Of a DNA stretch of 55,750 nt, positions 1 to 44,672 are shown one piece after another. The notes beneath the pieces were generated by a model that searched no databases, was not told where the DNA came from, and saw only the letters and a list, made by a program, of their open reading frames with translations. Each line of letters starts with the position of its first letter. The first letter of the stretch is position 1. Origin of the DNA: an uncultured virus (IMG/VR IMGVR_UViG_3300042914_003776) (lineage: Duplodnaviria > Heunggongvirae > Uroviricota > Caudoviricetes); IMG/VR virus record IMGVR_UViG_3300042914_003776, positions 62,001-117,750 of that record; one strand, 5' to 3'. Made by a program: the position numbers and the translations under genes.

Positions 1-187
1 CCATTACTTTCTCCTTACGAGGCTTTCGCCCCGCTCCTTCGCGTTTTCCGCCGTGGGTCATGTACAATCTCCGCCTTTCGTCTACTGAACGAGTTATCAC
101 CGCTATGATGCTGTTGCCCTCGCATGAGTCACAAATTGAAGTGTTGTGTGAATACAACAATGAACCGCATTTCCTACAATTTTTCAT
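1..187 (-). CDS. Small Zn-ribbon protein with HGGKREGAGRKP basic motif (runs off window edge)
   Basis: Manual translation MKNCRKCG..ICDSCE..MTHGGKREGAGRKPRKEKVM; ATGA overlap with upstream gene; no stop before position 1. Confidence 0.65.
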   Translation of the reverse strand, partial: MKNCRKCGSLLYSHNTSICDSCEGNSIIAVITRSVDERRRLYMTHGGKREGAGRKPRKEKVM

Positions 188-342
188 ATTCGACACTCGC
201 TGCATTCTCTTGGCTCTGATAATTCAACAATGTGCCACTCTGTATCGTCGTCCTCGCAATAAAGCAGGGCCGAATCGTGGTCAATAAATGGGCCAACAAA
301 ACTTAATCCGTCTACAAAATTACCATAAACAATTACAAACAT
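184..342 (-). CDS. Hypothetical 52-aa early protein
   Basis: Manual translation MFVIVYGNFVDGLSFVGPF...ECRI; tightly packed between neighbours. Confidence 0.7.
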   Translation of the reverse strand: MFVIVYGNFVDGLSFVGPFIDHDSALLYCEDDDTEWHIVELSEPRECSECRI

Positions 343-343
343 A

Positions 344-505
344 TTATTTTCCCTTTCTCAAAGCCCTTACAGTAAGTCTTAAACTAATCATTGCTAGCTC
401 TGGACTTGGCCCTTGACCGTGACAATTAGCAAACTCGCCACCTAATAAAGTAGCAACATATAAACCGTTCCAGTGACTAAATTGAATGTGTGCCTTGATA
501 TCCAT
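344..505 (-). CDS. 53-aa protein resembling the HicB antitoxin N-terminal domain
   Basis: MDIKAHIQFSHWNGLYVATLLGGEFANCHGQGPSPELAMISLRLTV; RBS AAGGAG; own promoter at 525-552. Confidence 0.6.
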   Translation of the reverse strand: MDIKAHIQFSHWNGLYVATLLGGEFANCHGQGPSPELAMISLRLTVRALRKGK

Positions 506-524
506 TGCTTTCTCCTTTACGATG

Positions 525-552
525 ATTATACACTATACATCGTCACTGTCAA
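525..552 (-). promoter_or_regulatory. Early sigma70-type promoter
   Basis: TTGACA-N16-TATAAT on minus strand. Confidence 0.85.
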
Positions 553-587
553 GGCCCGGAGTTTAATAAAAGATATATTTTTCTTTA

Positions 588-637
588 CCCCCACAAAAGA
601 GGGGGCCCGGCCGGCCCGGCGCCCCCCGTTAGAGGGG
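588..637. repeat. GC-rich repeat element copy A (CCSGG-N4-CCSGG core at 606-619)
   Basis: CCCCCACAAAAGAGGGGG overlapping CCCGG CCGG CCCGG, then CGCCCCCCGTTAGAGGGG. Confidence 0.9.
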
Positions 638-648
638 CTACCTTTTAG

Positions 649-855
649 CTAGTTCTTGGCAACGATCTTTTTGAGGCTCAGCGTTCGATAGCCACCGTTT
701 GCACAATCGACGGTGATATACTTGCCATTAGGGCCGATACCCCTCTTTTCAACTACTCCACTGATAGAACGCAAGATATTGCGATTACCATGCAAAGGAT
801 AAAAAACATCGACCACGCTACCAACTTTAGCACCGATAGCCTTAAAAGAAACCAT
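649..855 (-). CDS. Small SH3/WYL-like protein
   Basis: ORF track; C-terminal GKYITVDC..GGYRTLSLKKI resembles the WYL-domain YRxFxLxRI end. Confidence 0.55.
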   Translation of the reverse strand: MVSFKAIGAKVGSVVDVFYPLHGNRNILRSISGVVEKRGIGPNGKYITVDCANGGYRTLSLKKIVAKN

Positions 856-882
856 ATAAAATCCTTAAAAATAATAAATTTT

Positions 883-925
883 AAACAAAGGATGCGACAG
901 CTACATCTCTGCAACTGTCGCACCC
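883..925 (-). terminator. Intrinsic terminator or processing hairpin
   Basis: 16-bp stem GGGTGCGACAGTTGCA-GAGA-TGTAGCTGTCGCATCC (G-U pairs valid on minus strand) followed by TTTGTTT. Confidence 0.7.
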
Positions 926-940
926 CCACACAAAGAAAAA

Positions 941-1153
941 CTACGCTTCTTTAGTCGCAAACTTTTCAGCCTGATCTTTTCGGTAACGCTCTTGACGCTC
1001 AACAAGGGCTTTAATTAGAGAGTCTAGGCCAGACGCTCCAACCTTAACGGAAACCTCGTTATTCTCGCTGTCACGAAATTCGATTGAATCGTAATTCCAA
1101 CCAATATAGGTCGTAGAAGCATCAAACGAAACCGACTGTTTAACCTTGAGCAT
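941..1153 (-). CDS. Hypothetical early protein
   Basis: ORF track; RBS AGGAG; promoter at 1192-1219. Confidence 0.8.
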   Translation of the reverse strand: MLKVKQSVSFDASTTYIGWNYDSIEFRDSENNEVSVKVGASGLDSLIKALVERQERYRKDQAEKFATKEA

Positions 1154-1191
1154 TTTAGCTCTCCTAACAAAGAAATGAAACTTACACTCTA

Positions 1192-1219
1192 ATTATACCG
1201 GGCGATCAATGATTGTCAA
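1192..1219 (-). promoter_or_regulatory. Early sigma70-type promoter
   Basis: TTGACA-N16-TATAAT; CCSGG in spacer. Confidence 0.8.
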
Positions 1220-1475
1220 ATTTCAGACCGTTAATTTCAAAATACTTTTCGCAATCATTCTTGGAGTCAATCAAGCTCTTTCCGGTGCGTTCCTTATAAA
1301 GTTTAACACACGCAAGCTTACCACGATGCTGACCCTCATACTGTTCTTCAACAGTCAAATAAATAGAATGAGCGGTCACTTCACAAAGCTTAATAATTAA
1401 CTTTGCTACGTGAGAATCCAAGAAAGGGGCAGACTTTGCCGCATTCAATAAATGTCGGATGGCTTCAGTATTCAT
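1206..1475 (-). CDS. Protein with ribosomal L7/L12 C-terminal-like helix motif
   Basis: KLACVKLYKERTGKSLIDSKNDCE resembles bL12 KIxVIKxVRExTGLGLKEAKDLVE; RBS AGGAG. Confidence 0.6.
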   Translation of the reverse strand: MNTEAIRHLLNAAKSAPFLDSHVAKLIIKLCEVTAHSIYLTVEEQYEGQHRGKLACVKLYKERTGKSLIDSKNDCEKYFEINGLKFDNH

Positions 1476-1494
1476 TCGTTTTCTCCTTTTCCTT

Positions 1495-1522
1495 ATTATA
1501 CATTATCGACAGAGGTTGTCAA
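1495..1522 (-). promoter_or_regulatory. Early sigma70-type promoter
   Basis: TTGACA-N16-TATAAT with CGAT in spacer. Confidence 0.85.
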
Positions 1523-1585
1523 GTTCTTTAGTAAAAATCTTACAAGTTCTTTCGGCCCGGCTTGCCCTAATTAATAGGGGGAAAA

Positions 1586-1792
1586 CTAATCTTTTCCAAA
1601 ATAATCTATGCTATCGTTATTGTGCGTTAACCCCTGCTTGGTCAATTCTCCAACAACATCGATAATCCCTTGATCTCGGTAAAGTCTTACCAAATAATCC
1701 ATACAAAATTGCTTCCATTCGTCAACACTTATTTCCCCGGATAGAAACAATCTTCGAACGTCGTCATAACTTGACCTATCATTCCATTTCAT
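1586..1792 (-). CDS. Hypothetical early protein
   Basis: ORF track; upstream CACAAAGGGG leader. Confidence 0.75.
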   Translation of the reverse strand: MKWNDRSSYDDVRRLFLSGEISVDEWKQFCMDYLVRLYRDQGIIDVVGELTKQGLTHNNDSIDYFGKD

Positions 1793-1809
1793 TTCAATTC
1801 CCCTTTGTG

Positions 1810-1998
1810 CTAATAATCGTACTGACCGTGATCCCAGTCATCGCCGCCCATGTAATCCTGCCATTCCGTATATTCGTCCGGCTGGCCGTCGTCGTAGTTC
1901 TCGTTGGCTTCCTCGTCGCCCCAAAACTGGGCCATTTCCTCGGCGGTCAACTCTGGGCCATTGAATTCATCGCACTGAGACTTTTCAAAACTAGACAT
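1810..1998 (-). CDS. Highly acidic small protein (FExxQ[CS]DE family, copy 1)
   Basis: 20 D/E and 1 K in 62 aa; own promoter and ACACAAAGG leader. Confidence 0.8.
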   Translation of the reverse strand: MSSFEKSQCDEFNGPELTAEEMAQFWGDEEANENYDDGQPDEYTEWQDYMGGDDWDHGQYDY

Positions 1999-2044
1999 TT
2001 TAATTCCCCTTTGTGTCTTTTCTATTAATCCTGCTGACTGTTTT

Positions 2045-2072
2045 ATTATACAATATATATCGTCCTTGTCAA
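2045..2072 (-). promoter_or_regulatory. Early sigma70-type promoter
   Basis: TTGACA-N16-TATAAT. Confidence 0.85.
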
Positions 2073-2109
2073 GTGCCCGGCTGAAATAAAAAAAAGAATA
2101 TTTCTTTTA

Positions 2110-2174
2110 CCCCACCAAAAGAAGACCCCCCATTAGAGGGGGCCCGGCCGGCCCGGCGCCCCCCGTTAGAGGGG
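2110..2174. repeat. GC-rich repeat element copy B (core 2143-2156)
   Basis: AGAGGGGGCCCGGCCGGCCCGGCGCCCCCCGTTAGAGGGG identical to copy A. Confidence 0.9.
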
Positions 2175-2190
2175 ACTTACCCGACACCAC

Positions 2191-2952
2191 CTATCTGGAG
2201 TAGCTATGTTTGACCCCCTCCTTTTTGAGTACCTTGAGGGCCTCGGATGCTTCTGAACCCTTTGGCTGTACCCCATGAATGAGGAGCCCGAAACTGGTGT
2301 ACCTCGTTTGGGGGTTGGCTGCGTGTTCATCGGTATGATCGATTTCCAAGCCTAGTTCAGTGGCTTGTTGTACACTGAACACAACTTTAGCATATCTTAG
2401 TTTATACTGTTCGATCAAGTAGTCCTCTCGACCCCCCTCGCTGGCGGTAAGCACTAGATTCTCTGGAATGTCATACAATCGGTTAACCCAGTATCGTACA
2501 CTCTTGGTGTAAGCGTAGAATAAGCGGCCCGGGTTGTTTCGAGCAACTTCAATCCAAGCGTCAAAATAATCTTGGTTGAAAAAATCACCGGCAACATGAA
2601 TCCGGCATACCCCTAAATCGTGGGGCATGCTAGACTGAATCGATTCGATCATCTCGGCTTTAGTTAATGGCCGTAAAGCGTCGAAATTGTGCTTGCGTGA
2701 ATTGTAAACGTTAGTGTATACTACTTCCTGCGAAGCGGAAAAGCAGCGGAGTTGAGTAGCCGGGCCATCTTTGATAGAACGTTTACCGTCTTTTAAAACG
2801 GCTTTAGATAGGCAATCCTTAGCGAATGGGCAAGAGTAGCCCGAAAGCAGGTCTAATGAATAAACCTTTCGGCCATCTTCCAAGTAAACAGCGATAGATT
2901 CTACTTCGGCAAGTGCTTCGATCTTTGCATTAGCTGGGCTGAATTTTAGCAT
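2191..2952 (-). CDS. GP88-like (Cys-cluster, radical-SAM-like) phage protein
   Basis: SCPFAKDC..CFS Cys motif, RIHVAGDFF and FYAYTKS motifs recalled for the phage gene-product-88 family. Confidence 0.7.
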   Translation of the reverse strand: MLKFSPANAKIEALAEVESIAVYLEDGRKVYSLDLLSGYSCPFAKDCLSKAVLKDGKRSIKDGPATQLRCFSASQEVVYTNVYNSRKHNFDALRPLTKAEMIESIQSSMPHDLGVCRIHVAGDFFNQDYFDAWIEVARNNPGRLFYAYTKSVRYWVNRLYDIPENLVLTASEGGREDYLIEQYKLRYAKVVFSVQQATELGLEIDHTDEHAANPQTRYTSFGLLIHGVQPKGSEASEALKVLKKEGVKHSYSR

Positions 2953-2989
2953 TTCTTTGTTCCTTTGTGTTATTGCCTTTGACTCTCTT

Positions 2990-3017
2990 ATTATACAATA
3001 TCGGCAACCGTTGTCAA
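2990..3017 (-). promoter_or_regulatory. Early sigma70-type promoter
   Basis: TTGACA-N16-TATAAT with CGAT. Confidence 0.85.
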
Positions 3018-3061
3018 GTACTTAAATTTATTTTTTATAAAATCCTGCTGACCCTACTAAT

Positions 3062-3220
3062 GGGGGATACGCTAGAAAAAAACTTTTTTGATTTTATTTT
3101 ATACCCCCCGAAAGAGTGTACCCAGATAGACACCCCCCAAAAGAGGGGGCCCGGCCGGCCCGGCTCCCCCCTTCGGAGGGGTATCCCACCACAAGATACT
3201 ACCCCCGAGAGAGGAGCCCA
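3062..3220. repeat. GC-rich repeat element copy C, long form (core 3150-3163)
   Basis: AGAAAAAAACTTTTTTGATTTTATT A/T tract, several Cn-N4..6-Gn boxes, CCCGG CCGG CCCGG core. Confidence 0.9.
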
Positions 3221-3225
3221 CGCTA

Positions 3226-3387
3226 CTATACCGCTAAATCGCTGACCCCCATATCGGATTCGAACTGGTGGAAAAATGCTTCGTTGTAAATCGCCGTCGA
3301 TTCGATGAAGGCTTCCAGCTCCAAGAGGTCTTCTTGGGTTGGCATGTAAACTTCGTCGCACTGCTGAGTTTCAAAAACGTTTTCCAT
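3226..3387 (-). CDS. Acidic small protein (FExxQ[CS]DE family, copy 2)
   Basis: Start moved to MENVFETQQCDEV, downstream of promoter 3431-3458; 13 D/E, no K/R. Confidence 0.8.
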   Translation of the reverse strand: MENVFETQQCDEVYMPTQEDLLELEAFIESTAIYNEAFFHQFESDMGVSDLAV

Positions 3388-3430
3388 TTTCCTAATCCTT
3401 TGTGTGATAGAACGTCTTTCGTATGTCTCT

Positions 3431-3458
3431 ATTATACAGTATCGGCCCGGTTTGTCAA
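3431..3458 (-). promoter_or_regulatory. Early sigma70-type promoter
   Basis: TTGACA-N16-TATAAT; CGAT and CCSGG in spacer. Confidence 0.85.
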
Positions 3459-3463
3459 GAACT

Positions 3464-3658
3464 TTATTGAAAAATCTTAGTTGGAGTCCAGAATTTTGGA
3501 CGGGCTCGGAACGGCCCTTCTTCGTCACAGAACATCATTCCATCGGGGGTACAATAATTCCATTCGCTGAAAATTTCATACCACTTTACCCAACCTTCAT
3601 CGGTTAGAATTGGCGACCCGTCTTTTGGGGCGGTTTCAATTGGTTGAATATCAATCAT
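3464..3658 (-). CDS. DUF551-like small phage protein
   Basis: QPIETAPKDG start and PxxW end typical of this family. Confidence 0.75.
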   Translation of the reverse strand: MIDIQPIETAPKDGSPILTDEGWVKWYEIFSEWNYCTPDGMMFCDEEGPFRARPKFWTPTKIFQ

Positions 3659-3689
3659 TTTCCAGTCCTTTTTCTGATTAGCTGATTAT

Positions 3690-3717
3690 ATTATATCTTA
3701 TTTATCGGCCTTGTCAA
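3690..3717 (-). promoter_or_regulatory. Early sigma70-type promoter
   Basis: TTGACA-N16-TATAAT. Confidence 0.8.
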
Positions 3718-3770
3718 GACTAAAATTTAGCTGAATGCCAAAATCTCAGTGACTATTACCTATCCCAGCC

Positions 3771-3942
3771 GCCCCTATTTATAGGGGTGTTACACACCAC
3801 AAAATTCTGCTGACCCGGAAATCCTACTGACCATTCACCCAAAAACACGCCCCTATTTATAGGGGCGCTACACCCGCCCGCCCGAGGCCCCCCGCTAGGG
3901 GGGTCAGGCCACCCAGTCGGGGGGGATAGCCCCCCTTTCGAG
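3771..3942. repeat. Non-coding repeat block D
   Basis: GCCCCTATTTATAGGGG(T/C)G(T/C)TACAC at 3771-3795 and 3849-3873, two AATYCTRCTGACC boxes, further Cn/Gn boxes. Confidence 0.8.
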
Positions 3943-3946
3943 CGTA

Positions 3947-4282
3947 CTACTCAAAGTCATCGGCGTCGATTATACCTGCACGGATGGCCACCGTAACGAA
4001 CGCGATTTCCTTTCGGTATACCATATCCTCATCGATATTGTATTGGATATCGCCTTCTGGATTCGCTTCAAGCTGGGCCCGGTAATTTGCTACCCGAGCA
4101 GCTTTTTCGTTTTTGTGTTGCCTATGCTTGGAAGTCTTTTTTGTGGCGATACCTACCGCCTTTGCGAGAACACGTAGCGAACGAATACTACCGCCTTTCG
4201 AACGGTATTCAGCTTTCAAGTGCTTGTTGGCAAGGCCGAAAGCGTTTTCAATCGCAATGTCTAGTTCTGTGAAATCGTACAT
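3947..4282 (-). CDS. Hypothetical early protein with basic core
   Basis: Start moved to MYDFTELD after ACACAAAGGAAAAAAA leader. Confidence 0.8.
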   Translation of the reverse strand: MYDFTELDIAIENAFGLANKHLKAEYRSKGGSIRSLRVLAKAVGIATKKTSKHRQHKNEKAARVANYRAQLEANPEGDIQYNIDEDMVYRKEIAFVTVAIRAGIIDADDFE

Positions 4283-4321
4283 TCTTTTTTTCCTTTGTGT
4301 GAGATAAACTTGCCTTACACT

Positions 4322-4520
4322 ACTATAACCGCACAAACTAAACAAGATTAACAGGTCCGATTTATATTTTGTGATAAAAAGATTTTTTGATTGTCGTAAG
4401 TTGTTATATCGCATAGACTTGTAGCACGAAATTATTTTACAACTTTTTTTTGGCACGATATTTGCAATAGATATAGTATAAAAGGGGGGGGAATATAGAA
4501 AAAACTTTTGTGATTTTATT
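4322..4520. repeat. Duplicated regulatory block copy 1 (similar to 5774-5972)
   Basis: Shared ACTATAACCGCA..AAGATTAACAGGTC.GATTTATATTTTGT, TCGTAAGT..ACTT palindrome, TGGCACGATATTTGCA. Confidence 0.85.
4450..4466 (+). promoter_or_regulatory. Sigma54 (RpoN) -24/-12 promoter
   Basis: TTGGCACGATATTTGCA matches YTGGCACG-N4-TTGCW with GG-N10-GC spacing. Confidence 0.8.
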
Positions 4521-4733
4521 ACACACCCCCCTAACGGGTGGTCTCACATATACACCCCCCAAAAGGGGGGCCGGGAGCCCCCGGTCCCCCCGTTAGAGGG
4601 GGTATCCCCCCTTCTGGGCTACCACCCCCCCCGTTCAGGTGGTTTTCAAAAAAATAAGAAAAGTTTTTTTCTGGAGCATCCCCCGATAGAGGGACGCCCC
4701 AAAGAGTGGCTGGGTTGCCACCCCCCTTTCGGG
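4484..4733. repeat. GC-rich repeat element copy E (core CCGGG AGCC CCCGG, 4571-4584)
   Basis: Same box, core and A/T-tract architecture as copies C and F. Confidence 0.85.
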
Positions 4734-4946
4734 CTACATGGCTTGGATCTTTGCCAACCCCACTTCTAGGTTAGTTCGCAAGAGGCGGTAATCGTCTTGG
4801 CTTAAATAAACCTGTTCGCCTACTTTGTTGAAAACGTCGTGAGTTTCGTAGCTTCGTTCTTCCTCATGTTCTAAGGTAGATACCACGGTGAAACCGTTGG
4901 TTAGGTTGTACTTGATTGTTCGTTCATTTACTTTTTCTACTAGCAT
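4734..4946 (-). CDS. Hypothetical protein, paralogue of 6172..6390
   Basis: LVEKVNERTIKYNLTNGFTVVSTLEHEEERSYE aligns with LIETIANRATKFTFKTGWYVIVTTEWDDDRYYE. Confidence 0.8.
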   Translation of the reverse strand: MLVEKVNERTIKYNLTNGFTVVSTLEHEEERSYETHDVFNKVGEQVYLSQDDYRLLRTNLEVGLAKIQAM

Positions 4947-4983
4947 CTTTTTTTCCTTTGTGTTAGTTGCTTTCTACTCTTCT

Positions 4984-5011
4984 ATTATACCTTATCGGCC
5001 CGGCTTGTCAA
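4984..5011 (-). promoter_or_regulatory. Early sigma70-type promoter
   Basis: TTGACA-N16-TATAAT; CGAT and CCSGG in spacer. Confidence 0.85.
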
Positions 5012-5017
5012 GAGACT

Positions 5018-5155
5018 TTAAAGATATTTTAAAGCTTTTTCTGCTTGGGCCTTTAATCCCTCAAAAAGCTTGCGGGTTTCTTCGCTAATTCCTTCTTGCG
5101 ATAGAAGGTCTTCGATGGCTTCGATTGCTTGTTTGATGTTTTTGTAGTAGTTCAT
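5018..5155 (-). CDS. 45-aa helical protein
   Basis: Manual translation MNYYKNIKQAIEAIEDLLSQEGISEETRKLFEGLKAQAEKALKYL; ACACAAAAGGA leader. Confidence 0.75.
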   Translation of the reverse strand: MNYYKNIKQAIEAIEDLLSQEGISEETRKLFEGLKAQAEKALKYL

Positions 5156-5270
5156 TTTCTTTTTTCCTTTTGTGTTTTGTTTTGTTTTGTTTCGATCAAG
5201 CCACGTTAGGTTTGTTATCGGCTTTCGCCTTCCGTTTTAGTCAAGCAACTTTTTGTTTTTCCTTTTCTTT

Positions 5271-5298
5271 ATTATACCTTATCGGCCGGGCTTGTCAA
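5271..5298 (-). promoter_or_regulatory. Early sigma70-type promoter
   Basis: TTGACA-N16-TATAAT; CGAT and CCSGG in spacer. Confidence 0.85.
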
Positions 5299-5315
5299 GT
5301 CTCTTGAGTCATTTT

Positions 5316-5468
5316 TTAGAAGAAATTTAAAATTTCTTCCAAGGCAGCTTCTAGTTCTTCCGACATCCCCGATTCAGGGGATTCTTCGTTCACTTCTTCA
5401 ATCCAGATCAATTCGATTTCGACCGATTCTAGTACTTCATCCGATTGTAGATTCTCAAAAACGTTCAT
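5316..5468 (-). CDS. Acidic small protein (FExxQ[CS]DE family, copy 3)
   Basis: Manual translation MNVFENLQSDEVLESVEIE...EEILNFF; 16 D/E, no K/R in 50 aa. Confidence 0.8.
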   Translation of the reverse strand: MNVFENLQSDEVLESVEIELIWIEEVNEESPESGMSEELEAALEEILNFF

Positions 5469-5505
5469 TTCTTTTTTCCTTTGTGTTATTGTCTTCGTTT
5501 TCTCT

Positions 5506-5533
5506 ATTATACTCTATCGACCAACTTTGTCAA
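5506..5533 (-). promoter_or_regulatory. Early sigma70-type promoter
   Basis: TTGACA-N16-TATAAT with CGAT. Confidence 0.85.
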
Positions 5534-5539
5534 GAGACT

Positions 5540-5734
5540 TTATTGAATTTCTTCAAATTTCTTTTCGAGATATTTTAAATCGTTTGAACGATTTCTGCAA
5601 TTTCTTGGCGATCCCTCACCGTATGCAATCCAATACTTCTTTGACAATGCAAAATATTCTTTTTTACCATTGCCAGCTTCTACGATGCTAACCTTAACAC
5701 CACTTTTTAAAACTTTGCTTTTTAGAATGTTCAT
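5540..5734 (-). CDS. Basic 64-aa hypothetical protein
   Basis: Start moved to MNILKSKV after AAGGAAAAAAGAA; the upstream part of the tracked ORF crosses non-coding repeats. Confidence 0.75.
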   Translation of the reverse strand: MNILKSKVLKSGVKVSIVEAGNGKKEYFALSKKYWIAYGEGSPRNCRNRSNDLKYLEKKFEEIQ

Positions 5735-5773
5735 TTCTTTTTTCCTTATTTTAAACTTTTGTTCTCTTCTACC

Positions 5774-5972
5774 ACTATAACCGCAGAAAACAAATAAGAT
5801 TAACAGGTCTGATTTATATTTTGTTGCAAAAAGATTTTTTCGTCGTCGTAAGTCATTGGTAGATAACAACTTATGATTCGAAATTATTTTTAAAATATTT
5901 TTTGGCACGATATTTGCACTGCTTGTAGTACAAAAGGGGGGTATTGCAGAAAAAAACTTTTTTGATTTTATT
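5774..5972. repeat. Duplicated regulatory block copy 2
   Basis: See 4322-4520; inverted repeat TCGTAAGT 5846-5853 / ACTTATGA 5869-5876. Confidence 0.85.
5902..5918 (+). promoter_or_regulatory. Sigma54 (RpoN) -24/-12 promoter
   Basis: TTGGCACGATATTTGCA identical to 4450-4466. Confidence 0.8.
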
Positions 5973-6165
5973 GTGACCCACCCAGAAGAGGGGGTATTTG
6001 AGAGATCCCCCAAAAGGGGGGTTCCGGGCCGGCCCGGCCCCCTCGTTCGGGGGGATATCCCCCCTTTCAGGCTACACCCCCCCATTCGGGTGGAGTTTAG
6101 AAAAAAACTTTTTTCTTTTTTTTCTCGTACCACCCAGAAGGGGGATCACCCCCCTTCCTAGCGTA
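5936..6165. repeat. GC-rich repeat element copy F (perfect palindrome core CCGGGCCGGCCCGG, 6024-6037)
   Basis: AGAAAAAAACTTTTTT on both sides of the core; multiple Cn-N-Gn boxes. Confidence 0.9.
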
Positions 6166-6171
6166 CCACCA

Positions 6172-6390
6172 CTATCCAGCAAGTTTTTCCAACATTTTTA
6201 ACGTCCATGCGGGGCCACTAGGAAGCGGGTGCATTTCCCCGGCAGGATTGTAGAGGGTGCATTCTTCATAGTATCGGTCGTCGTCCCATTCTGTGGTTAC
6301 GATAACATACCATCCGGTTTTAAAGGTAAACTTTGTGGCTCTGTTTGCGATGGTTTCGATGAGTTGGATAGAAGAAGTTTGTTCGTCCAT
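6172..6390 (-). CDS. Hypothetical protein, paralogue of 4734..4946
   Basis: ORF track; conserved leader and promoter. Confidence 0.8.
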   Translation of the reverse strand: MDEQTSSIQLIETIANRATKFTFKTGWYVIVTTEWDDDRYYEECTLYNPAGEMHPLPSGPAWTLKMLEKLAG

Positions 6391-6425
6391 TTTTTTTCCT
6401 TTGTGTTTGTGTCTCGTATGTTCTT

Positions 6426-6454
6426 ATTATACCTTATCGGCCCAACCCCGTCAA
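6426..6454 (-). promoter_or_regulatory. Early sigma70-type promoter
   Basis: TTGACG-N17-TATAAT with CGAT. Confidence 0.8.
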
Positions 6455-6483
6455 GAGTTGAGCCGAATTTTTTTTTATTTTTT

Positions 6484-6681
6484 TTATCTTACAATGGCCA
6501 ACTTTGGAACTAGGCTTTTAGGCCCTTGTCGAATGTCAATTGCGGTTCCGTCCTTGCAAACTAGCATGATAGGAATCATCCAGTAGTCCTCTCCATCATA
6601 TTCAATCAAGAAAACATACTTGGTTCCGGCGTCAAGAGCAACTTCGTTGAGACCTACGGTGAACATGTTTAGCTTTTCCAT
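6484..6681 (-). CDS. Hypothetical early protein
   Basis: ORF track; conserved leader. Confidence 0.8.
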   Translation of the reverse strand: MEKLNMFTVGLNEVALDAGTKYVFLIEYDGEDYWMIPIMLVCKDGTAIDIRQGPKSLVPKLAIVR

Positions 6682-6722
6682 TTTTTCTTTCCTTTGTGTG
6701 AAACTGTCTTTCGTATGTTTGT

Positions 6723-6751
6723 ATTATACAATATCGACTCAACCCCGTCAA
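6723..6751 (-). promoter_or_regulatory. Early sigma70-type promoter
   Basis: TTGACG-N17-TATAAT; flank AACCCCGTCAAGAGTTGAGCCGAATTTTTTT shared with the 6426 promoter. Confidence 0.8.
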
Positions 6752-6779
6752 GAGTTGAGCCGAATTTTTTTTATTTTTT

Positions 6780-6956
6780 TTATTGGAACATATCCATTGC
6801 GATTGCGTGAAGTTCACAAGAATAGTTGTTCGTCAAGTAATCGCATTCCGCATCCGTCAATGGGCGATTTTCGACGATATGCCAGCCACCCCGGCAGAAC
6901 ACGGTATCATCGGCAGGTTCTAGTTCTAGGTCGATAACTTGGTTGATTGTAATCAT
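6780..6956 (-). CDS. 58-aa acidic hypothetical protein
   Basis: Manual translation MITINQVIDLELEPADDTVFCRGGWHIVENRPLTDAECDYL...MDMFQ. Confidence 0.75.
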   Translation of the reverse strand: MITINQVIDLELEPADDTVFCRGGWHIVENRPLTDAECDYLTNNYSCELHAIAMDMFQ

Positions 6957-6999
6957 TTTTTCTTTCCTTTGTGTTTGAAACTGTCTTTCGTATGTTCTT

Positions 7000-7028
7000 A
7001 TTATACCTTATCGACCAATCTTGGTCAA
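7000..7028 (-). promoter_or_regulatory. Early sigma70-type promoter
   Basis: TTGACC-N17-TATAAT with CGAT. Confidence 0.8.
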
Positions 7029-7033
7029 GAGCT

Positions 7034-7195
7034 TTAACCTAAAATTCCGTTTTTATTTTTAACCACTTCAACTAAGTAGCTATAGCTCTTGCTGGTATGA
7101 ACCGTACCATCCGCACAGCGAGCAATAAAATATTGCTGCTTTGTTCCGCGCAATCGGCACTCGATTTTCCAAACTAGTTTTTCTGTACTAAACAT
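7034..7195 (-). CDS. 53-aa hypothetical protein (first gene of the early array)
   Basis: Manual translation MFSTEKLVWKIECRLRGTKQQYFIARCADG...; conserved leader. Confidence 0.75.
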   Translation of the reverse strand: MFSTEKLVWKIECRLRGTKQQYFIARCADGTVHTSKSYSYLVEVVKNKNGILG

Positions 7196-7233
7196 TTTTT
7201 TTCCTTGTGTGAAACTGTCTTTCGTATGCTCTT

Positions 7234-7261
7234 ATTATACTCTAATTATCGCCATTGTCAA
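7234..7261 (-). promoter_or_regulatory. Early sigma70-type promoter
   Basis: TTGACA-N16-TATAAT. Confidence 0.85.
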
Positions 7262-7293
7262 TAGGAAACTTTATTTTTTATTTTTTTATTTTT

Positions 7294-7500
7294 CTAGTAT
7301 ACGGCCATATACTGTAAAAATGTATATCGTATTCTATTGTAAAGTATATTTCAGTATACCTATAAACCGCTGTACATAGTGTACAACCAGTATCATATAT
7401 CGTTGTACATAGTGTACTGGCATACCCCTAGTTTTTCGTTCACCCCCCCTGTCTAGCGACCCCCCGCCGGGGGGTGGGGTGGGTATTGCATACCAAGTCG
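7294..7500. repeat. Iteron-like GTA(T/C)A repeats plus GC-rich box; candidate genome end or origin
   Basis: TGTACATAGTGTAC at 7371-7384 and 7404-7417; many GTATA/GTACA; CCCCCCGCCGGGGGG at about 7460-7474. Confidence 0.55.
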
Positions 7501-7505
7501 CTAAT

Positions 7506-8450
7506 TTATATAGATAAAAAACCACCCTTAGCAACACAATGATCCTTATAGTATCTAAAAACAGCAGTATGGCCAACAATTGCTATATGGTCGGCTATTT
7601 CTCTAAAAGTTTTTCCTTCTTCCACCATTGATATAATTAGGTCTTTATATGGTTCCAGATTAGATTTTGCTTTTTTATATTTGTTTATAGCATTGTGCTT
7701 TGATGTAGAAGACTCTAAATGCTCTGGATTGCAGCATTTTCTATTATGGCATTTGTGATGAACTAAATATGGATAATCATTATAATGATAAGCATATGAA
7801 ACCCTATGACATAAATATTGTTTTTTATCATAGATAAAATAACCATAACCCTCTTTTGTCGCTTTTTGCCACTCCCAGCATCCATTATCAACCTTGATTA
7901 GATTTTTATCTACTTTATTTAAATATAGCTCTTTTAATGGAAAATCTGAATCTTGTTTATTTTTATTGTAAATAACGTCTTCGTGCAAAGAGATTATAAT
8001 TTCATGCTCTTTTTTTAGCAGCTTTTCCGGTGAACATTCTTCTATTATATAAAATAAAAAATCACTACCTATATTAAAATCTGTTTGCAAGCCTTTATTA
8101 TAATGATTATTTTTATTTAATTCTTTAAAATGTAGTTTTAATCTTTGTATTACATCTTCTGATGAGCCTATATACGCCTTATATAAATCATTTCTACAAA
8201 TAACATAAAGCCCACAGATAACTCTTGTTTCGTCTAAAGATATTTTATGCTTTAATAATTTAGATATATTTTTGTTTTTTACTTTATAATCTAGCCTGAT
8301 TGATCTTAGTTGACTTTTTGATATTTGATATTTTTCGCATATCTCTTTATTTGATAGCCTGCCATAGTTCTCTACAATTTCTTGGGCTTTATCGTGTTTT
8401 AAAGTATTTCTTTTTTTATATAAGGATTTTTTGCCTTTTGGTCTAGCCAT
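7506..8450 (-). CDS. GIY-YIG plus HNH (His-Me finger) double-nuclease homing-type endonuclease
   Basis: GLY..YIGSS..RL..H (GIY-YIG) and CWEW..GYG..HRVSY..HHKCHNRKCCNPEHL (HNH); start moved to MARPKG with AGGAG RBS. Confidence 0.85.
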   Translation of the reverse strand: MARPKGKKSLYKKRNTLKHDKAQEIVENYGRLSNKEICEKYQISKSQLRSIRLDYKVKNKNISKLLKHKISLDETRVICGLYVICRNDLYKAYIGSSEDVIQRLKLHFKELNKNNHYNKGLQTDFNIGSDFLFYIIEECSPEKLLKKEHEIIISLHEDVIYNKNKQDSDFPLKELYLNKVDKNLIKVDNGCWEWQKATKEGYGYFIYDKKQYLCHRVSYAYHYNDYPYLVHHKCHNRKCCNPEHLESSTSKHNAINKYKKAKSNLEPYKDLIISMVEEGKTFREIADHIAIVGHTAVFRYYKDHCVAKGGFLSI

Positions 8451-8487
8451 ATAATATCTCCTGTAAAAAAGGGGGTCTGCATATAGA

Positions 8488-8493
8488 TACACA
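8488..8493 (-). promoter_or_regulatory. Putative late promoter motif TGTGTA
   Basis: Same motif as upstream of structural operons. Confidence 0.5.
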
Positions 8494-8585
8494 AAAAACT
8501 ACCTAGCACAACAAGCTCCTTCTTTTCAATATGTTATGCCCCTACTATTAACTGCATCCCCTTTCTGCTTTTTGTGCTATGCTCG

Positions 8586-9020
8586 CTAACTGTGACCCGG
8601 CTCTGTAGGCTTCCTTAAAAGCGGCATCATTGCTTCTTCTGGGGTACGATTACCCTTCTTAAAGTTGCAATCTCTGCATGCACACACCAGATTTTCCCAA
8701 GTGTTTCTACCGTTTCTACTTTGAGGCAAAACGTGATCTAGAGTTAAGTGTTCAGGCTTTTCACAGCCACAGTACTGACACGTATAATTGTCTCTTAAAA
8801 ATACGTTACGTTTATTAGGAACGAACCTCTTATTTCTTTTAACGTACTTCTTGACCATAACTATCTTAGGAACTTGATAGTAGTCACCCCCGGCACTTAA
8901 AATAGGGTTTGGCCAAAATTCAATAGCTTGAACTACGCCTTTTAATAAAAGGACCATTCCTTTCTGCCAGCTACTAATAGTGATGACAGAATAATCCAAA
9001 TTAAGTATAGTTGTTCTCAT
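8586..9020 (-). CDS. HNH endonuclease (McrA/HNH_5-like)
   Basis: RDNYTCQYCG..LTLDHVLPQSRNG..WENLVCACRDCNFKKG. Confidence 0.92.
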   Translation of the reverse strand: MRTTILNLDYSVITISSWQKGMVLLLKGVVQAIEFWPNPILSAGGDYYQVPKIVMVKKYVKRNKRFVPNKRNVFLRDNYTCQYCGCEKPEHLTLDHVLPQSRNGRNTWENLVCACRDCNFKKGNRTPEEAMMPLLRKPTEPGHS

Positions 9021-9044
9021 AATTTTTATCCTTTTTCTGTATTT

Positions 9045-9056
9045 AGTGTATATTAT
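9045..9056 (+). promoter_or_regulatory. Putative late promoter motif (GTGTATATTAT)
   Basis: GTGTAW motif upstream of the plus-strand operon. Confidence 0.55.
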
Positions 9057-9084
9057 AAAATAGGTTTATATAAAGGAGAAAATA

Positions 9085-9294
9085 ATGCATAATATAATAC
9101 CGCCCGGCGAATATGTTGTCAAGGGCACTGAAGAATTAAATAAACAAGTGGCCCGGGAATTAGATATTCCTGACGAACCAAAACACACCACCGCACAGCT
9201 TTTCGAAGAAGGAGAGGAAATTGGAAGTAGACGACGAAACCCTACAGAAGATAATAAAGATAGCGAAGGCACTAGCTCCAAAGTACACATTTGA
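9085..9294 (+). CDS. Hypothetical protein overlapping the sigma gene
   Basis: Strong RBS AAGGAG; 74-nt out-of-frame overlap with 9221..9706. Confidence 0.55.
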   Translation: MHNIIPPGEYVVKGTEELNKQVARELDIPDEPKHTTAQLFEEGEEIGSRRRNPTEDNKDSEGTSSKVHI

Positions 9295-9706
9295 TTGTCA
9301 TAGTAAAGAAGATATCGAACAAGAAGCAATCATGATGGGCATCGAGGCATTGCCCCGGTACGATTCGGCTCGGCCCCTTGAAAACTTTCTTTACACCCAT
9401 ATTAGCAACCGGCTAAAAAATTTCAAGAGGGATAATTATTTTCGGCCAAATTCTGAGGGCGAACCCGAAAAGGTTCAGCAAAGTAAGAAGAATATTCTAG
9501 ATGCCGGGTCCCTAAACGAGGGGGCTATCTACTTTGAGCCCGACTTGGATGACTATCTAGACAGCCGAGAAGCTGTAGAAAAAGTCCGGGCAGCCCTGCC
9601 AGCTTCTTATCGTAAAGACTATCTGAAGCTATGTGCCGGGGTAAGAGTGTCGGCCCATAGAAAGCAGGAGATTTATTCTTTAATTAAGGAAATTTTAGAT
9701 GGCTAG
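9221..9706 (+). CDS. Phage sigma70-family sigma factor (region 2)
   Basis: EDIEQEAIMMGIEALPRYD..LENFLYTHISNRLKNFKRD; TTG start with GGAGAGG RBS. Confidence 0.85.
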   Translation: MEVDDETLQKIIKIAKALAPKYTFDCHSKEDIEQEAIMMGIEALPRYDSARPLENFLYTHISNRLKNFKRDNYFRPNSEGEPEKVQQSKKNILDAGSLNEGAIYFEPDLDDYLDSREAVEKVRAALPASYRKDYLKLCAGVRVSAHRKQEIYSLIKEILDG

Positions 9707-10493
9707 TTTAAAGACCGGGCGTTTCTCAATATCCGAAATAGGCTATATTAGGGCGAACGTAGATCGGCAAAGCGTAGACGAGATAGCCGGGCATCTTAAC
9801 CGGGACCCCATATCGGTCCATAACTGGATCGCTAAAAATGTGGGGTTTTCATCGGGCGAAAAAAGGGAGGCTGAAGTCCATCAAGAACTCAAGGGGCGAC
9901 CATATTATAAGGAACTCGCCAAGCAGTTTTCAGAAGATGAGCTGGCAATGTTTGAGTTTCATTTTAAAAAGATGTGGGCCCAGTTCAAAGATGACGTTTT
10001 CCATACCGAAGAGATGCAAATTATCGACTTGGTAAAATTAGAAATATTAATGAACCGCATACTCCGGGGCCAGCAGGAAACAGTAGAAAAGATATACCGG
10101 CTTGAGGACGAGCTTCAAGACGCAGAAAGGGCCGACGATAAAGATACGGCGATGGCTCTGGAAAGACAGATTGCCACGCTCCGGGCATCACAGGAAACGA
10201 TGTCCCGGGACTTTAAAGATTTGCAGGCCCGTAAATCTGCTTTATATAAAGATCTAAAGGGTACGCGCGAACAGCGTATTAAGGCGATTGAAGATCATCG
10301 CCAGACATTCCCAACTTTAATTACCAAAGTAATGACGGACCCTAAATACCGGCAGGATATGGCCACTTATATCGAAAAGATGCGGCTGGCTACGGAAAAA
10401 GAAAGGGCCCGGTTATCTGAGTTAATTTCCTATGAGGACAATATACCAGATAGACCATTGTTAAACTCTGACTCTACAATGAAGGACGAATAA
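9699..10493 (+). CDS. Putative terminase small subunit (N-terminal HTH, coiled coil)
   Basis: SVDEIAGHLNRDPISVHNWI HTH-like; lies upstream of the large terminase. Confidence 0.5.
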   Translation: MASLKTGRFSISEIGYIRANVDRQSVDEIAGHLNRDPISVHNWIAKNVGFSSGEKREAEVHQELKGRPYYKELAKQFSEDELAMFEFHFKKMWAQFKDDVFHTEEMQIIDLVKLEILMNRILRGQQETVEKIYRLEDELQDAERADDKDTAMALERQIATLRASQETMSRDFKDLQARKSALYKDLKGTREQRIKAIEDHRQTFPTLITKVMTDPKYRQDMATYIEKMRLATEKERARLSELISYEDNIPDRPLLNSDSTMKDE

Positions 10494-10495
10494 AA

Positions 10496-10744
10496 ATGAC
10501 ACCAGAAAATTTTATATATTGGATACAGGGATTTTTTGAAATACAAGACCCAAAAAATATTACTGAACAACAGGTCCAGATTATTAAAGACCATATAGCA
10601 CTAGTGCTAAAAAAAGATACGCCGCAATATACGCTAAATTTTATTAAGAGCGATTCATCAGAAATATATTGCTTAAATCAGAAGCCTCCTCTACCAACAA
10701 ATCCAGTAAATAACATTGTATTACCATTCGGAGGATCTTGTTAA
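10496..10744 (+). CDS. Conserved phage hypothetical protein
   Basis: MTPENFIYWIQGFFE start; operonic position. Confidence 0.75.
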   Translation: MTPENFIYWIQGFFEIQDPKNITEQQVQIIKDHIALVLKKDTPQYTLNFIKSDSSEIYCLNQKPPLPTNPVNNIVLPFGGSC

Positions 10745-11820
10745 TGAAAACAGCCATAATATACGGCGTCACCGGGCAGGACGGGTTTTATTTAACCCAA
10801 GAATTACTAAGGCACAATTATCAAGTAGTTGGTGTTACGCGAAGATCAAGCACTAATAATACCACTAGATTGACCCCTTTTCTTACCAACAAAAATTTAA
10901 CGCTTATAGAGGGCGATGTAACCGACTGTTTTTCTATAGCGAATTTAATAAACAAATATAGGCCCGACGAAATTTATAATCTTGCTGCACAGTCCCATGT
11001 GGCAACCTCGTTTGTCCAGCCTTCTTTGACTTGGGATATTACGGCCGGGGGATGTTTAAATATACTTGAGGCGATACGAAATGTTAGCCCGGGTATTAAG
11101 TTTTATCAGGCTTCTTCAAGCGAAATGTTTGGTAAAAATTATACGACCGCAGCCGATGGTAAAAAGTATCAAAATGAGGACACTCCGATGATGCCACAGT
11201 CGCCATATGCTATTGCCAAATTGGCGGCACATCACTTGGTAAGAAACTACCGGGACTCCTATGGCACCTTTGCATGCTCTGGTATTCTCTTTAATCATGA
11301 GAGCGCTCATAGGGGTGAGAATTTTGTTACCAGAAAGATTACCAAGTGGATAGGGGGATTGTGTGCCCTATCAAGAGAAAATAACGATATAGTATTTTAT
11401 GATGATTATATATTGTGCGGCAATACTAAATATCCAAAGCTAAGACTAGGCAACCTAGAGGCTAAAAGAGACTGGGGACATGCAAAAGATTACTGCCGGG
11501 CCATGTATTTAATGCTACAACAAGATACCCCGGACGATTATGTTGTTTCTACCCAAGAAACCCACAGTGTTAAAGAGTTTTTAGATACGGCCTTTAAGGT
11601 GGCTCATTTGGGCGATTATAATAATTATATTGTTATAGATCCCGCTTTTTATAGACCAGCCGAGGTTGATTACTTATTGGGAGATTCTACTAAAGCTAGA
11701 ACAGTTTTAAAGTGGACCCCTGAATATGATTTTGCTTCTTTAGTAGAAGAAATGGTGGAGCACGATATACATGAGGCAGAGAAGACAAGATTCGGAATTG
11801 CGCAAGTCAGTTCTCGTTAG
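10744..11820 (+). CDS. gmd: GDP-mannose 4,6-dehydratase
   Basis: GVTGQDG, EIYNLAAQSHV, QASSSEMFG, SPYAIAK, GILFNHES..RGENFVTRKI, RDWGHAKDY, RPAEVDYLLGD; ATG at 10744. Confidence 0.97.
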   Translation: MKTAIIYGVTGQDGFYLTQELLRHNYQVVGVTRRSSTNNTTRLTPFLTNKNLTLIEGDVTDCFSIANLINKYRPDEIYNLAAQSHVATSFVQPSLTWDITAGGCLNILEAIRNVSPGIKFYQASSSEMFGKNYTTAADGKKYQNEDTPMMPQSPYAIAKLAAHHLVRNYRDSYGTFACSGILFNHESAHRGENFVTRKITKWIGGLCALSRENNDIVFYDDYILCGNTKYPKLRLGNLEAKRDWGHAKDYCRAMYLMLQQDTPDDYVVSTQETHSVKEFLDTAFKVAHLGDYNNYIVIDPAFYRPAEVDYLLGDSTKARTVLKWTPEYDFASLVEEMVEHDIHEAEKTRFGIAQVSSR

Positions 11821-43707: not shown

Positions 43708-44586
43708 ATGGCAAAAGTAGAAACAGTTAAGAGTAAAGATTTAAGTGGCGCAGAAGTTGTTCTTGTTGTAAAGTCGCCTTCGCCAAAAAATTTCAGAGAT
43801 GCACAAGTTATTTACAATAAAGCTCTCAGAACAGCCTTGGAAGGTGGTTCTATTTTAAGACGCAAGCTTAATGAGTTCTTGACCGAACAAAAAGTTTGGG
43901 ATTCTGATAAAGAAAATAATTATCAAAAAATCCTAAAGGAAATTTCGGATCACGAAGACACAATTAAGGCTGGGGGTATTTCTCTCAAAAGAGCCAAAGA
44001 AGTGGCTCTAGAGCTTAGGGACTTGCGATTAAAGCTAAGAGAGCTATTGTCAGAGCGACAAACTTATGATGCTACTACGGCAGAAGGTCAAGCTGATAAT
44101 ACTCAGTTTAATTTTTTGGTTTCTGTCTGCACATTTAAGGAGGATGGAAATTCTCTAATGTGGTCTAAGCTAGAAGATTATGACAATTCCCGAGAGCCCT
44201 ATGCCGCAGACGCCGCATCCACGCTCGCTAAGATGATTTATGATCTTGATCCAGATTACGACAATAATTTGGTAGAAAACAAATTCTTGAAAAAGTTCAA
44301 GTTCGTGCGAGATGACTTGCGATTGGTTAATAAGGATGGCCACCTAATTGATGAAGATGGTCGTCTGATTAACGAAAACGGTCGATTTGTAGCCTACCGA
44401 GAAGATGGAACTCAGTATTTTGTTAATCGTGACGGCGAAGAAGTCGATGAAAGCGGAGAAAAGAAAATTACCGTATTGCCATTTTTGGATGATGATGGAA
44501 ACCCTATCGTAGAAGAAACGGTAGCCTCAGCATCAGAGCCAGAAAAGGTAGAAGAAAAAACGCAAGATGAACCAGAAAATGTGTAA
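43708..44586 (+). CDS. Putative tail assembly chaperone
   Basis: Directly upstream of tape measure; repeated (N/D)x(D/E)G.LI hairpins. Confidence 0.55.
   Translation: MAKVETVKSKDLSGAEVVLVVKSPSPKNFRDAQVIYNKALRTALEGGSILRRKLNEFLTEQKVWDSDKENNYQKILKEISDHEDTIKAGGISLKRAKEVALELRDLRLKLRELLSERQTYDATTAEGQADNTQFNFLVSVCTFKEDGNSLMWSKLEDYDNSREPYAADAASTLAKMIYDLDPDYDNNLVENKFLKKFKFVRDDLRLVNKDGHLIDEDGRLINENGRFVAYREDGTQYFVNRDGEEVDESGEKKITVLPFLDDDGNPIVEETVASASEPEKVEEKTQDEPENV
44580..44585 (+). promoter_or_regulatory. Putative late promoter motif TGTGTA
   Basis: Overlaps stop of upstream gene, before tape measure. Confidence 0.5.
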
Positions 44587-44613
44587 TTAATAGCGGGGAT
44601 AGTGTGTTTTGTA

Positions 44614-44656
44614 GGGCAGTCCATGTATAGGTATTATATGTGGTCTGCCTTTTTTT
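44614..44656 (+). terminator. Terminator-like hairpin upstream of tape measure gene
   Basis: GGGCAG TCCA TGTATA..TATATG TGGT CTGCC followed by T7. Confidence 0.6.
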
Positions 44657-44672
44657 ATAGGAAGAAAAAACA

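Follow-up and report, generated by a model that had tools for sequence, protein, structure and literature searches.

The DNA analysed here (the window, 55,750 nucleotides) comprises bases 62001–117750 of the 117,750-bp uncultured-virus record IMGVR_UViG_3300042914_003776 (G000). Its first 7260 positions form an early region of small minus-strand genes, each behind a near-consensus sigma70 promoter, in which a repeated non-coding element built on G/C-rich palindromic boxes is found. Five loci of a complete 158,520-bp phage record (G001) match the window without mismatch. Seventeen of the 18 scanned window proteins encoded left of position 7200 had no Pfam match. Perfect sigma70 promoters (12/12 consensus positions) occur 11 times on the minus strand within window positions 1–10000; over G000 52000–70000 there are 28 early promoters, 20 of which carry CGATA in the −35/−10 spacer.

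The initial annotation had reported five cores consisting of two CCSGG pentamers separated by four nucleotides, and these lie where it placed them: at 606, 2143 and 3150 (CCCGGCCGGCCCGG), at 4571 (CCGGGAGCCCCCGG) and at 6024 (CCGGGCCGGCCCGG). Four further cores lie to the left of the window, at G000 55245, 56754, 58805 and 60990. Across the 117,750-bp assembly nine CCSGG pairs have a 4-nt gap, whereas no other gap from 0 to 19 is represented more than once; the 4-nt-gap pairs are not chance. The complete genome contains the same nine cores and none extra, all within 12.8 kb of its 158.5 kb, which bears out the idea of a repeated platform in the early region. The core can also be parsed as GGSCC-N4-GGSCC, but this fits only six of the nine copies; CCSGG, which fits all nine, is the better parse, though the other is possible.

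The boxes that the same annotation described around the cores as Cn-N4..6-Gn are present, but they are in fact one fixed 16-bp unit, C4-N8-G4: of 147 cases measured free of any register, 86 span exactly 16 nt from the first C to the last G, and 126 span 15–17 nt. Boxes without any core also occur in the window, at 1565, 3772, 3850 and 3888. In this phage the boxes are direct repeats with a pitch of 31–33 bp, and the A/T tract beside the element belongs to a sigma70 promoter on the minus strand, of which it forms the upstream region. Along transcription the order is stop codon, box, G+C linker, box, A/T tract, −35. The element is the upstream head of many strong early promoters, restricted to the early region and present in a single orientation. 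Its copies in the window, with one of the promoters served, are the following (ORF, open reading frame):

589–637, minus strand: short element with distal box 622–637, linker containing the CCSGG pair 606–619, and proximal box 589–604, at a pitch of 33; it begins 11 nt past the stop of ORF 855–649, and the −35 (552) lies 36 nt further on.
525–552, minus strand: sigma70 promoter at consensus (TTGACA-16-TATAAT) that drives ORF 505–344 and is headed by the 589 element.
1565–1580, minus strand: stand-alone core-less box with one mismatch, upstream of promoter 1522.
2126–2174, minus strand: short element with boxes 2126–2141 and 2159–2174 and core 2143–2156, placed after a GP88-family gene (2952–2191) and 53 nt before the −35 at 2072.
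3051–3181, minus strand: extended element with boxes 3133–3148 and 3166–3181, core 3150–3163, degenerate boxes near 3104 and 3051 and an A7CT6 tract at 3076–3089, 115 nt before the −35 (3017).
3772–3924, minus strand: core-less box cluster (3772, 3850, 3888 and a degenerate box at 3909), upstream of promoter 3717.
4484–4700, minus strand: long element with boxes 4555–4570 and 4586–4601, core 4571–4584, degenerate boxes at 4526 and 4626, and A/T tracts on either side.
5935–6165, minus strand: long element with boxes 6006–6021 and 6038–6054, core 6024–6037, further boxes at 5978 and 6077, and A7CT6 tracts at 5950–5963 and 6101–6114.

Relatives were collected by protein homology together with a promoter-plus-box pattern that did not require CCSGG. 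At least 593 capsid-gene relatives of this phage family were confirmed. Once chance G+C-rich loci from the pattern search had been removed by eye, and redundant loci also removed, there were 74 distinct box pairs in 25 loci, this phage included. Their pitch is 31–34 bp in 41, 36–37 bp in 29 and 38–40 bp in four, and the family-wide unit is two direct-repeat 16-bp boxes (sense strand CCCCTC-N4-GGGGGG) at a pitch of 31–34 or 36–37 bp around a G+C-rich linker. Two complete relatives, G012 and G013, contain no box. An exact core search of viral contigs returned seven loci, five from this phage and two chance G+C-rich matches, and a metagenome search with the pair pattern returned 40, eight of which resembled family members and 32 did not.

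The paired pentamer had been taken for the conserved unit, with homologous elements lacking it named as the refuting observation, and outside this lineage the comparison found just such elements. In the 71 pairs used for linker analysis (three atypical pairs were dropped), the 9-bp CCSGG pair is present in all 14 elements of this lineage and in none of the 57 from other relatives. A single CCSGG is found in 36 of those 57 linkers, where 12.5 are expected from shuffles, and any CCSGG in none of the nine linkers of lineages C–F. Within the lineage the observation that CCSGG and its 9-bp pitch are held while the spacer varies stands, the 4-nt spacers being CCGG, CGCG, CGAG, CCAG and GGCT. Three loci (L215, L221 and L240) were retrieved with a pattern that itself contained the pair; only one of L240's five pairs was needed to satisfy it, however, and the other four show new spacers. 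All five L240 pairs lie at positions orthologous to those in this phage, before the same downstream gene or promoter, while two genes upstream of orthologous elements differ; the copies therefore belong to the downstream promoter and are not neutral recent duplications. The element is linked to the downstream promoter rather than to the upstream gene and is conserved across a large phage family. In one of the L240 replacements (L240:8021–8791) a second GP88-family gene stands in place of the gene found upstream of the orthologous element here.

The pentamer is also abundant elsewhere in the genome: G001 contains 319 CCSGG sites, on both strands and across its whole length, and no CCWGG site at all. 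Compared with within-gene synonymous shuffles, its genes hold 249 CCSGG versus 74 expected and 0 CCWGG versus 107, and the CCSGG total divides into GCCCGG (151 versus 20) and other contexts (98 versus 54). When measured against codon-shuffled genes, GCCCGG is the top over-used word in this phage (142 versus 17.4, about 8-fold). Four other CCWGG-avoiding genomes (G009, G010, G012 and G013) have CCSGG words in about 3-fold excess, with GCCCGG not among their top words, a result that overturned the view, drawn from short stretches, that CCSGG over-use is unique to this lineage. Mere compensation for CCWGG loss was likewise rejected, as it accounts for the non-G contexts but not for GCCCGG, and so was a Chi-like polarity of CCSGG or GCCCGG, as neither shows strand bias. 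The linker pair reflects a real lineage-specific preference laid into a more general element and parallels the over-use of GCCCGG across the genome; a lineage-specific factor may use it as an additional site.

The initial annotation had proposed a methylation-sensing switch in the manner of SeqA on paired GATC. In one form of it, a host methyltransferase would mark the pair and a reader of methylated or plain CCSGG/GCCCGG would control promoters or replication. Such a reader would account for the retention of the pair in every element of the lineage despite varied spacers, the L240 pairs found outside the search pattern included, and for the GCCCGG excess, the surplus of single CCSGG in other linkers and the CCSGG located at or in the promoter for 6 of the 28 early promoters. 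The pair is nevertheless missing from every element of the other lineages, the linkers of lineages C–F are devoid of CCSGG, the 4571 core has no GCCCGG, and the excess in part compensates for CCWGG loss. Pfam scans of G001 detected no DNA methyltransferase of the C5 or N6/N4 type, and PF00145 and PF01555 had no match in G001, G009 or G010. A C5 enzyme, its specificity not assigned, is encoded in one of two host-group genomes, and CCSGG methylation is described in the accessible text of a study of a marine genome not tied to this host (PMC8919816). Taken together, a switch of this kind appears quite unlikely. Even less credit is due to the proposals that the cores lure away a two-site restriction enzyme acting on CCWGG or signal injection or replication. 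CCWGG is indeed absent from this genome, enzymes of the EcoRII/PspGI group, which act on CCWGG, contact the CC:GG halves in a like manner according to the available parts of two reports (PMC2577355, PMC2770665), and the early region is probably transcribed first. A decoy has no purpose, however, because a phage with zero CCWGG has nothing to protect, and the CCSGG sites are spread over both strands while the cores follow promoters rather than one locus; we regard this explanation as highly improbable.

Pointers to the host are two DUF1501 genes and one DUF1559 prepilin-type gene, all host-like, located by Pfam scan at L009:7837–11858 of the phage. The best genome relatives of their proteins are almost all labelled Planctomycetota, the top ones being Pirellulaceae, and the host is for this reason probably a planctomycete. 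Judged by its genes the phage is not T4-type: its putative capsid protein has no tblastn match among 50,697 GenBank phage records, and its polymerase is of the DnaE type.

The two longest elements are long because a second module adjoins them, consisting of a sigma54-like site, a TAAGT-N15-ACTT palindrome and a putative second class of promoter:

4322–4357, minus strand: putative second-class promoter with a weak −35, a conserved GACCTGTTAA motif and a TATAGT −10, before ORF 4282–3947.
4397–4421, no strand assigned: TAAGT-N15-ACTT palindrome, of the type that takes the place of boxes in other family members.
4450–4465, plus strand: sigma54-like −24/−12 site pointing into the long element.
5849–5873, no strand assigned: TAAGT-N15-ACTTA palindrome.
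5902–5917, plus strand: sigma54-like site pointing into the long element.

The 4322–4357 sequence, which we infer to be a promoter, recurs near 5775–5809 and in five to six copies in the relative L221. The sigma54 consensus TGGCAC-N5-TTGC served as reference for the −24/−12 sites, which match its spacing. These sites face away from the sigma70 promoter in the window and in L201, L202, L205 and L221, and lie 4–7 nt from the proximal box in G007, G008 and G011. In relatives two or three of them form opposed arrays spanning no more than 60 bp, some overlapping, and the predicted sigma54 start would lie inside the G/C box. Sigma54 is encoded in all five host-group genomes.

The TAAGT palindrome occupies the box slot in box-less early regions, where 15 tandem pairs with a G+C linker were found in six loci (linkers of about 27–28 nt, with 14–28 permitted by the search pattern). 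Two loci hold hybrids of box and TAAGT site; in L222 (lineage not assigned) a CCSGG pair lies between the two. TAAGT-N15-ACTTA sites were noted at L206–L211. Seven copies occur in the five host-group genomes, compared with none of a control motif. Being fixed in length, rich in mismatches and present in hosts, this motif behaves as a protein site would. Judged by eye from translations, the host-group copies lie once upstream of a gyrA-like ORF and twice near integrase- or transposase-like ORFs. The presence of different motifs in the same slot across related phages points to a swappable control module that would head each early cassette.

These data have led us to favour, narrowly and with a confidence just short of even, a model in which the element is a sequence-specific DNA-binding platform that would insulate or silence early cassettes. 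Each cassette runs in the order described above and continues beyond the sigma70 promoter with a ribosome site and a small gene; in it the 16-bp boxes would be double-stranded sites for a dimeric sequence-specific protein. Two bound dimers, sometimes beside a sigma54 closed complex or a TAAGT-site protein, would keep transcription that starts at the preceding, very strong promoter from running through and/or turn off the neighbouring promoter after the early phase. Activation would be a less likely job because the promoters are already at consensus. As a by-product, the conserved heads would serve as homology arms for gene swapping. A bolder version, which we consider rather unlikely, is that the family uses protein roadblocks in place of terminators. 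A modular two-site head, combining C4-N8-G4 boxes, host-type TAAGT-N15-ACTTA sites or a box with a TAAGT site about a G+C spacer, would insulate and later silence each cassette, inward sigma54 sites would often strengthen it by trapping closed host polymerase, and in this lineage a GCCCGG/CCSGG reader, selected genome-wide, would be wired into the spacer.

The preference for a duplex protein-binding head rests on the mostly absent U-tract, the lack of selection on the linker or on a long hairpin, the lack of covariation and the exchangeability with the TAAGT site. A canonical intrinsic-terminator U-tract (at least five T among the 8 nt that follow the final box) is found in only 10 of 74 elements and missing from 64; at least five A occur there in 25, and a separate predicted terminator lies upstream of the element in nine. 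The linker is 83% G+C, with self-complementarity no higher than in shuffles (mean z −0.16). Energy minimisation predicts a single long hairpin rather than a pair of short ones for 71 of the 74 elements, but the distal and proximal boxes do not co-vary as such a hairpin, which was rejected as the selected structure. The short box hairpin shows no covariation in the 34-row alignment A1 either (0.053 versus 0.064 shuffled). Both long elements fold better than shuffles (z −2.5 and −3.9), as expected of any palindromic-box array. The fixed box length and the two narrow pitch classes were also counted in favour of a protein platform. At the Rfam gathering score the only matches were tRNAs (15, in L010 and L011), none of them at the elements.

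Several observations weigh against this model, and the first of them suit an alternative in which the boxes act as RNA, folding at the 3' ends of early transcripts into two short G/C hairpins, each with a 4-nt loop and a 6-bp stem that includes U-G, for U-tract-free termination or attenuation, or for 3'-end protection, as in the promoter-early stem-loops (PeSLs) of T4-type phages. In its imperfect form the box, CCCCTC-N4-GGGGGG, lies 55 times on the transcribed strand and eight times on the other, as an RNA hairpin would, and this bias yields a U-G wobble instead of a C-A mismatch. Pairing within the box at stem positions 5–6 exceeds that of permuted boxes (234 versus 218 ± 3), an excess that the choice of register may inflate and with which the result on alignment A1 disagrees. 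Among 161 single boxes the sense RNA folds better in 123 and the antisense in 32, with no such bias under DNA parameters (84 versus 63), and GNRA/UNCG loops number 22 sense versus eight antisense, in copies that are not independent. By a rough ORF rule 25 of 73 elements lie within 20 nt of a stop codon. Other points against a protein platform are that a pitch of 36–37 sets the second box on the opposite helix face and that helical phasing to the −35 is not significant (de-duplicated distances, p 0.08).

The literature divides on the RNA alternative. A PeSL G/C stem-loop terminated transcription in a lacZ assay in the accessible text of one report (PMC2839356), and U-tract-free hairpin clusters have been proposed as terminators (PMC8355165, available part); terminators without a U-tract are disputed for mycobacteria, where a U-tract requirement is reported in the portion available (PMC3993855). 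Apart from the missing covariation and the preference for the long fold, an RNA hairpin does not explain why C4/G4 is kept where any stem would serve, an argument that is partly circular as boxes were chosen on C4/G4, nor why the boxes are exchangeable with a mismatch-rich TAAGT site. We therefore consider short RNA hairpins possible but doubtful.

The protein platform would also need a binding partner. The box pair is present in none of five host-group genomes and in two of 61 host-family genomes, not above control, and because hosts lack the motif the partner would probably be phage-made. Candidates came from presence/absence in three box-bearing versus two box-less genomes, and no box-binding protein was identified among them, which also counts against the model. 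One candidate, P0001, was rejected, being present as well in a TAAGT-type phage without an exact box in the 19 kb examined. P0001 (L013:16488–16985) is a conserved 165-aa protein with 376 relatives and no Pfam or PHROG match, and among named Atlas clusters it lies closest to restriction-like or T4 endonuclease IV-like nucleases (0.90–0.91). P0002 and P0003 had no PHROG match.

The role in gene swapping that the platform model treats as a by-product could instead be the chief one, with the elements acting as recombination sites or homology arms for early-cassette swaps and any effect on transcription being secondary. Genes are replaced between orthologous elements (relative to L240 and within the G009 group), in relatives too distant to place crossovers. 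Ten of 115 alignment-block ends lie within 8 nt of the distal edge where 1.45 are expected, although some blocks are paralogous. The phage encodes a RecA-like protein (Pfam scan), and PeSLs offer a precedent in the accessible text of two papers (PMC2839356, PMC4122927). The block-end excess fits PeSL-type shuffling and was counted for the platform model too, yet conservation alone gives the same pattern, and every model predicts that blocks end at conserved islands. Moreover, most early promoters have no boxes although their genes differ too, and homologous exchange needs neither strict orientation nor a fixed promoter distance. Recombination as the principal function thus seems very unlikely.

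Other features of the genome were noted. Window 7370–7480, beyond the first early promoter, is gene-free and holds two TGTACATAGTGTAC repeats and a box-like C/G palindrome; it is possibly a genome end or origin, and TGTACA pairs resembling those found there come after linkers in L016. A tRNA match in the early region (L011:7925–8106) spans 182 nt, suggesting an intron-bearing or interrupted tRNA. Tandem repeats encoding Gln/Val/Trp-rich repeats on the minus strand of G000 44500–51000 dominate k-mer counts, and a large cluster of glycosyltransferases, FkbM methyltransferases and GDP-sugar enzymes extends over L012:15311–19837, L013:767–10528 and window 10738–11820.

No description of the element was found in the open-access literature searched, although the supplements of one paper (PMC10690425) could list it. 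The elements belong to a large phage family with no match in the GenBank set searched, and provide exact, swappable sequences for fishing out planctomycete or phage DNA-binding proteins. They could also settle whether PeSL-type palindromes are RNA terminators or protein sites, a question left open in the available text of the PeSL report (PMC2839356). Two features still call for an explanation and can be tested: the sigma54-like arrays, and the 8-fold excess of GCCCGG in a genome where no methyltransferase was found.

Three known systems invite comparison. SeqA acts on paired GATC, and HIP1-type words are over-represented methylation words; the element likewise has short paired sites at a fixed pitch within a genome-wide excess of the word, but its pair is limited to one lineage, and no cognate methyltransferase or reader was found. 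Tandem upstream factor sites are known at strong promoters, as with the Fis sites and UP element at rrn P1, and in the paired NtrC enhancer sites. The likeness lies in a pair of palindromic sites, spaced by roughly three turns of the helix, that precede an A/T tract and a promoter. The element differs in that its motif is absent as a host motif, its pitch and promoter distance vary, and its sigma54-like sites, which overlap the boxes or point towards them, are not placed downstream of an enhancer. We know of no factor with a C4-N8-G4 site. The closest parallel is the PeSL, whose resemblance to these cassette-boundary elements the initial annotation rightly noted. PeSLs are composite promoter and stem-loop cassettes of the T4-type phages RB49/phi1, PST/T4 and nt-1/KVP40; in the accessible text one stem-loop terminated in a reporter and mini-circles were found (PMC2839356, PMC4122927), and the authors raised the possibility that the GGGG...CCCC motif binds protein (PMC2839356). 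Both are intergenic repeats among small genes in a hypervariable early region, with a stop codon, G/C-rich palindrome, A/T tract, near-consensus sigma70 promoter, ribosome site and small gene in succession, with G-T pairs in the stem and, apparently, gene swaps between copies, and one family member, L017, has the A6-G3-C-T6 type described for nt-1. The element differs in having the C-run first and the G-run second, a fixed 16-bp length, two tandem boxes with a G+C linker, a position always upstream of the A/T tract and never inside the promoter, a replacement in the TAAGT-N15-ACTTA site, and sigma54-like neighbours. Its layout, and probably its shuffling, resemble those of a PeSL, but it is not classed as one because its carrier phage is not T4-type and because polarity, pairing and interchangeable partner sites set it apart.

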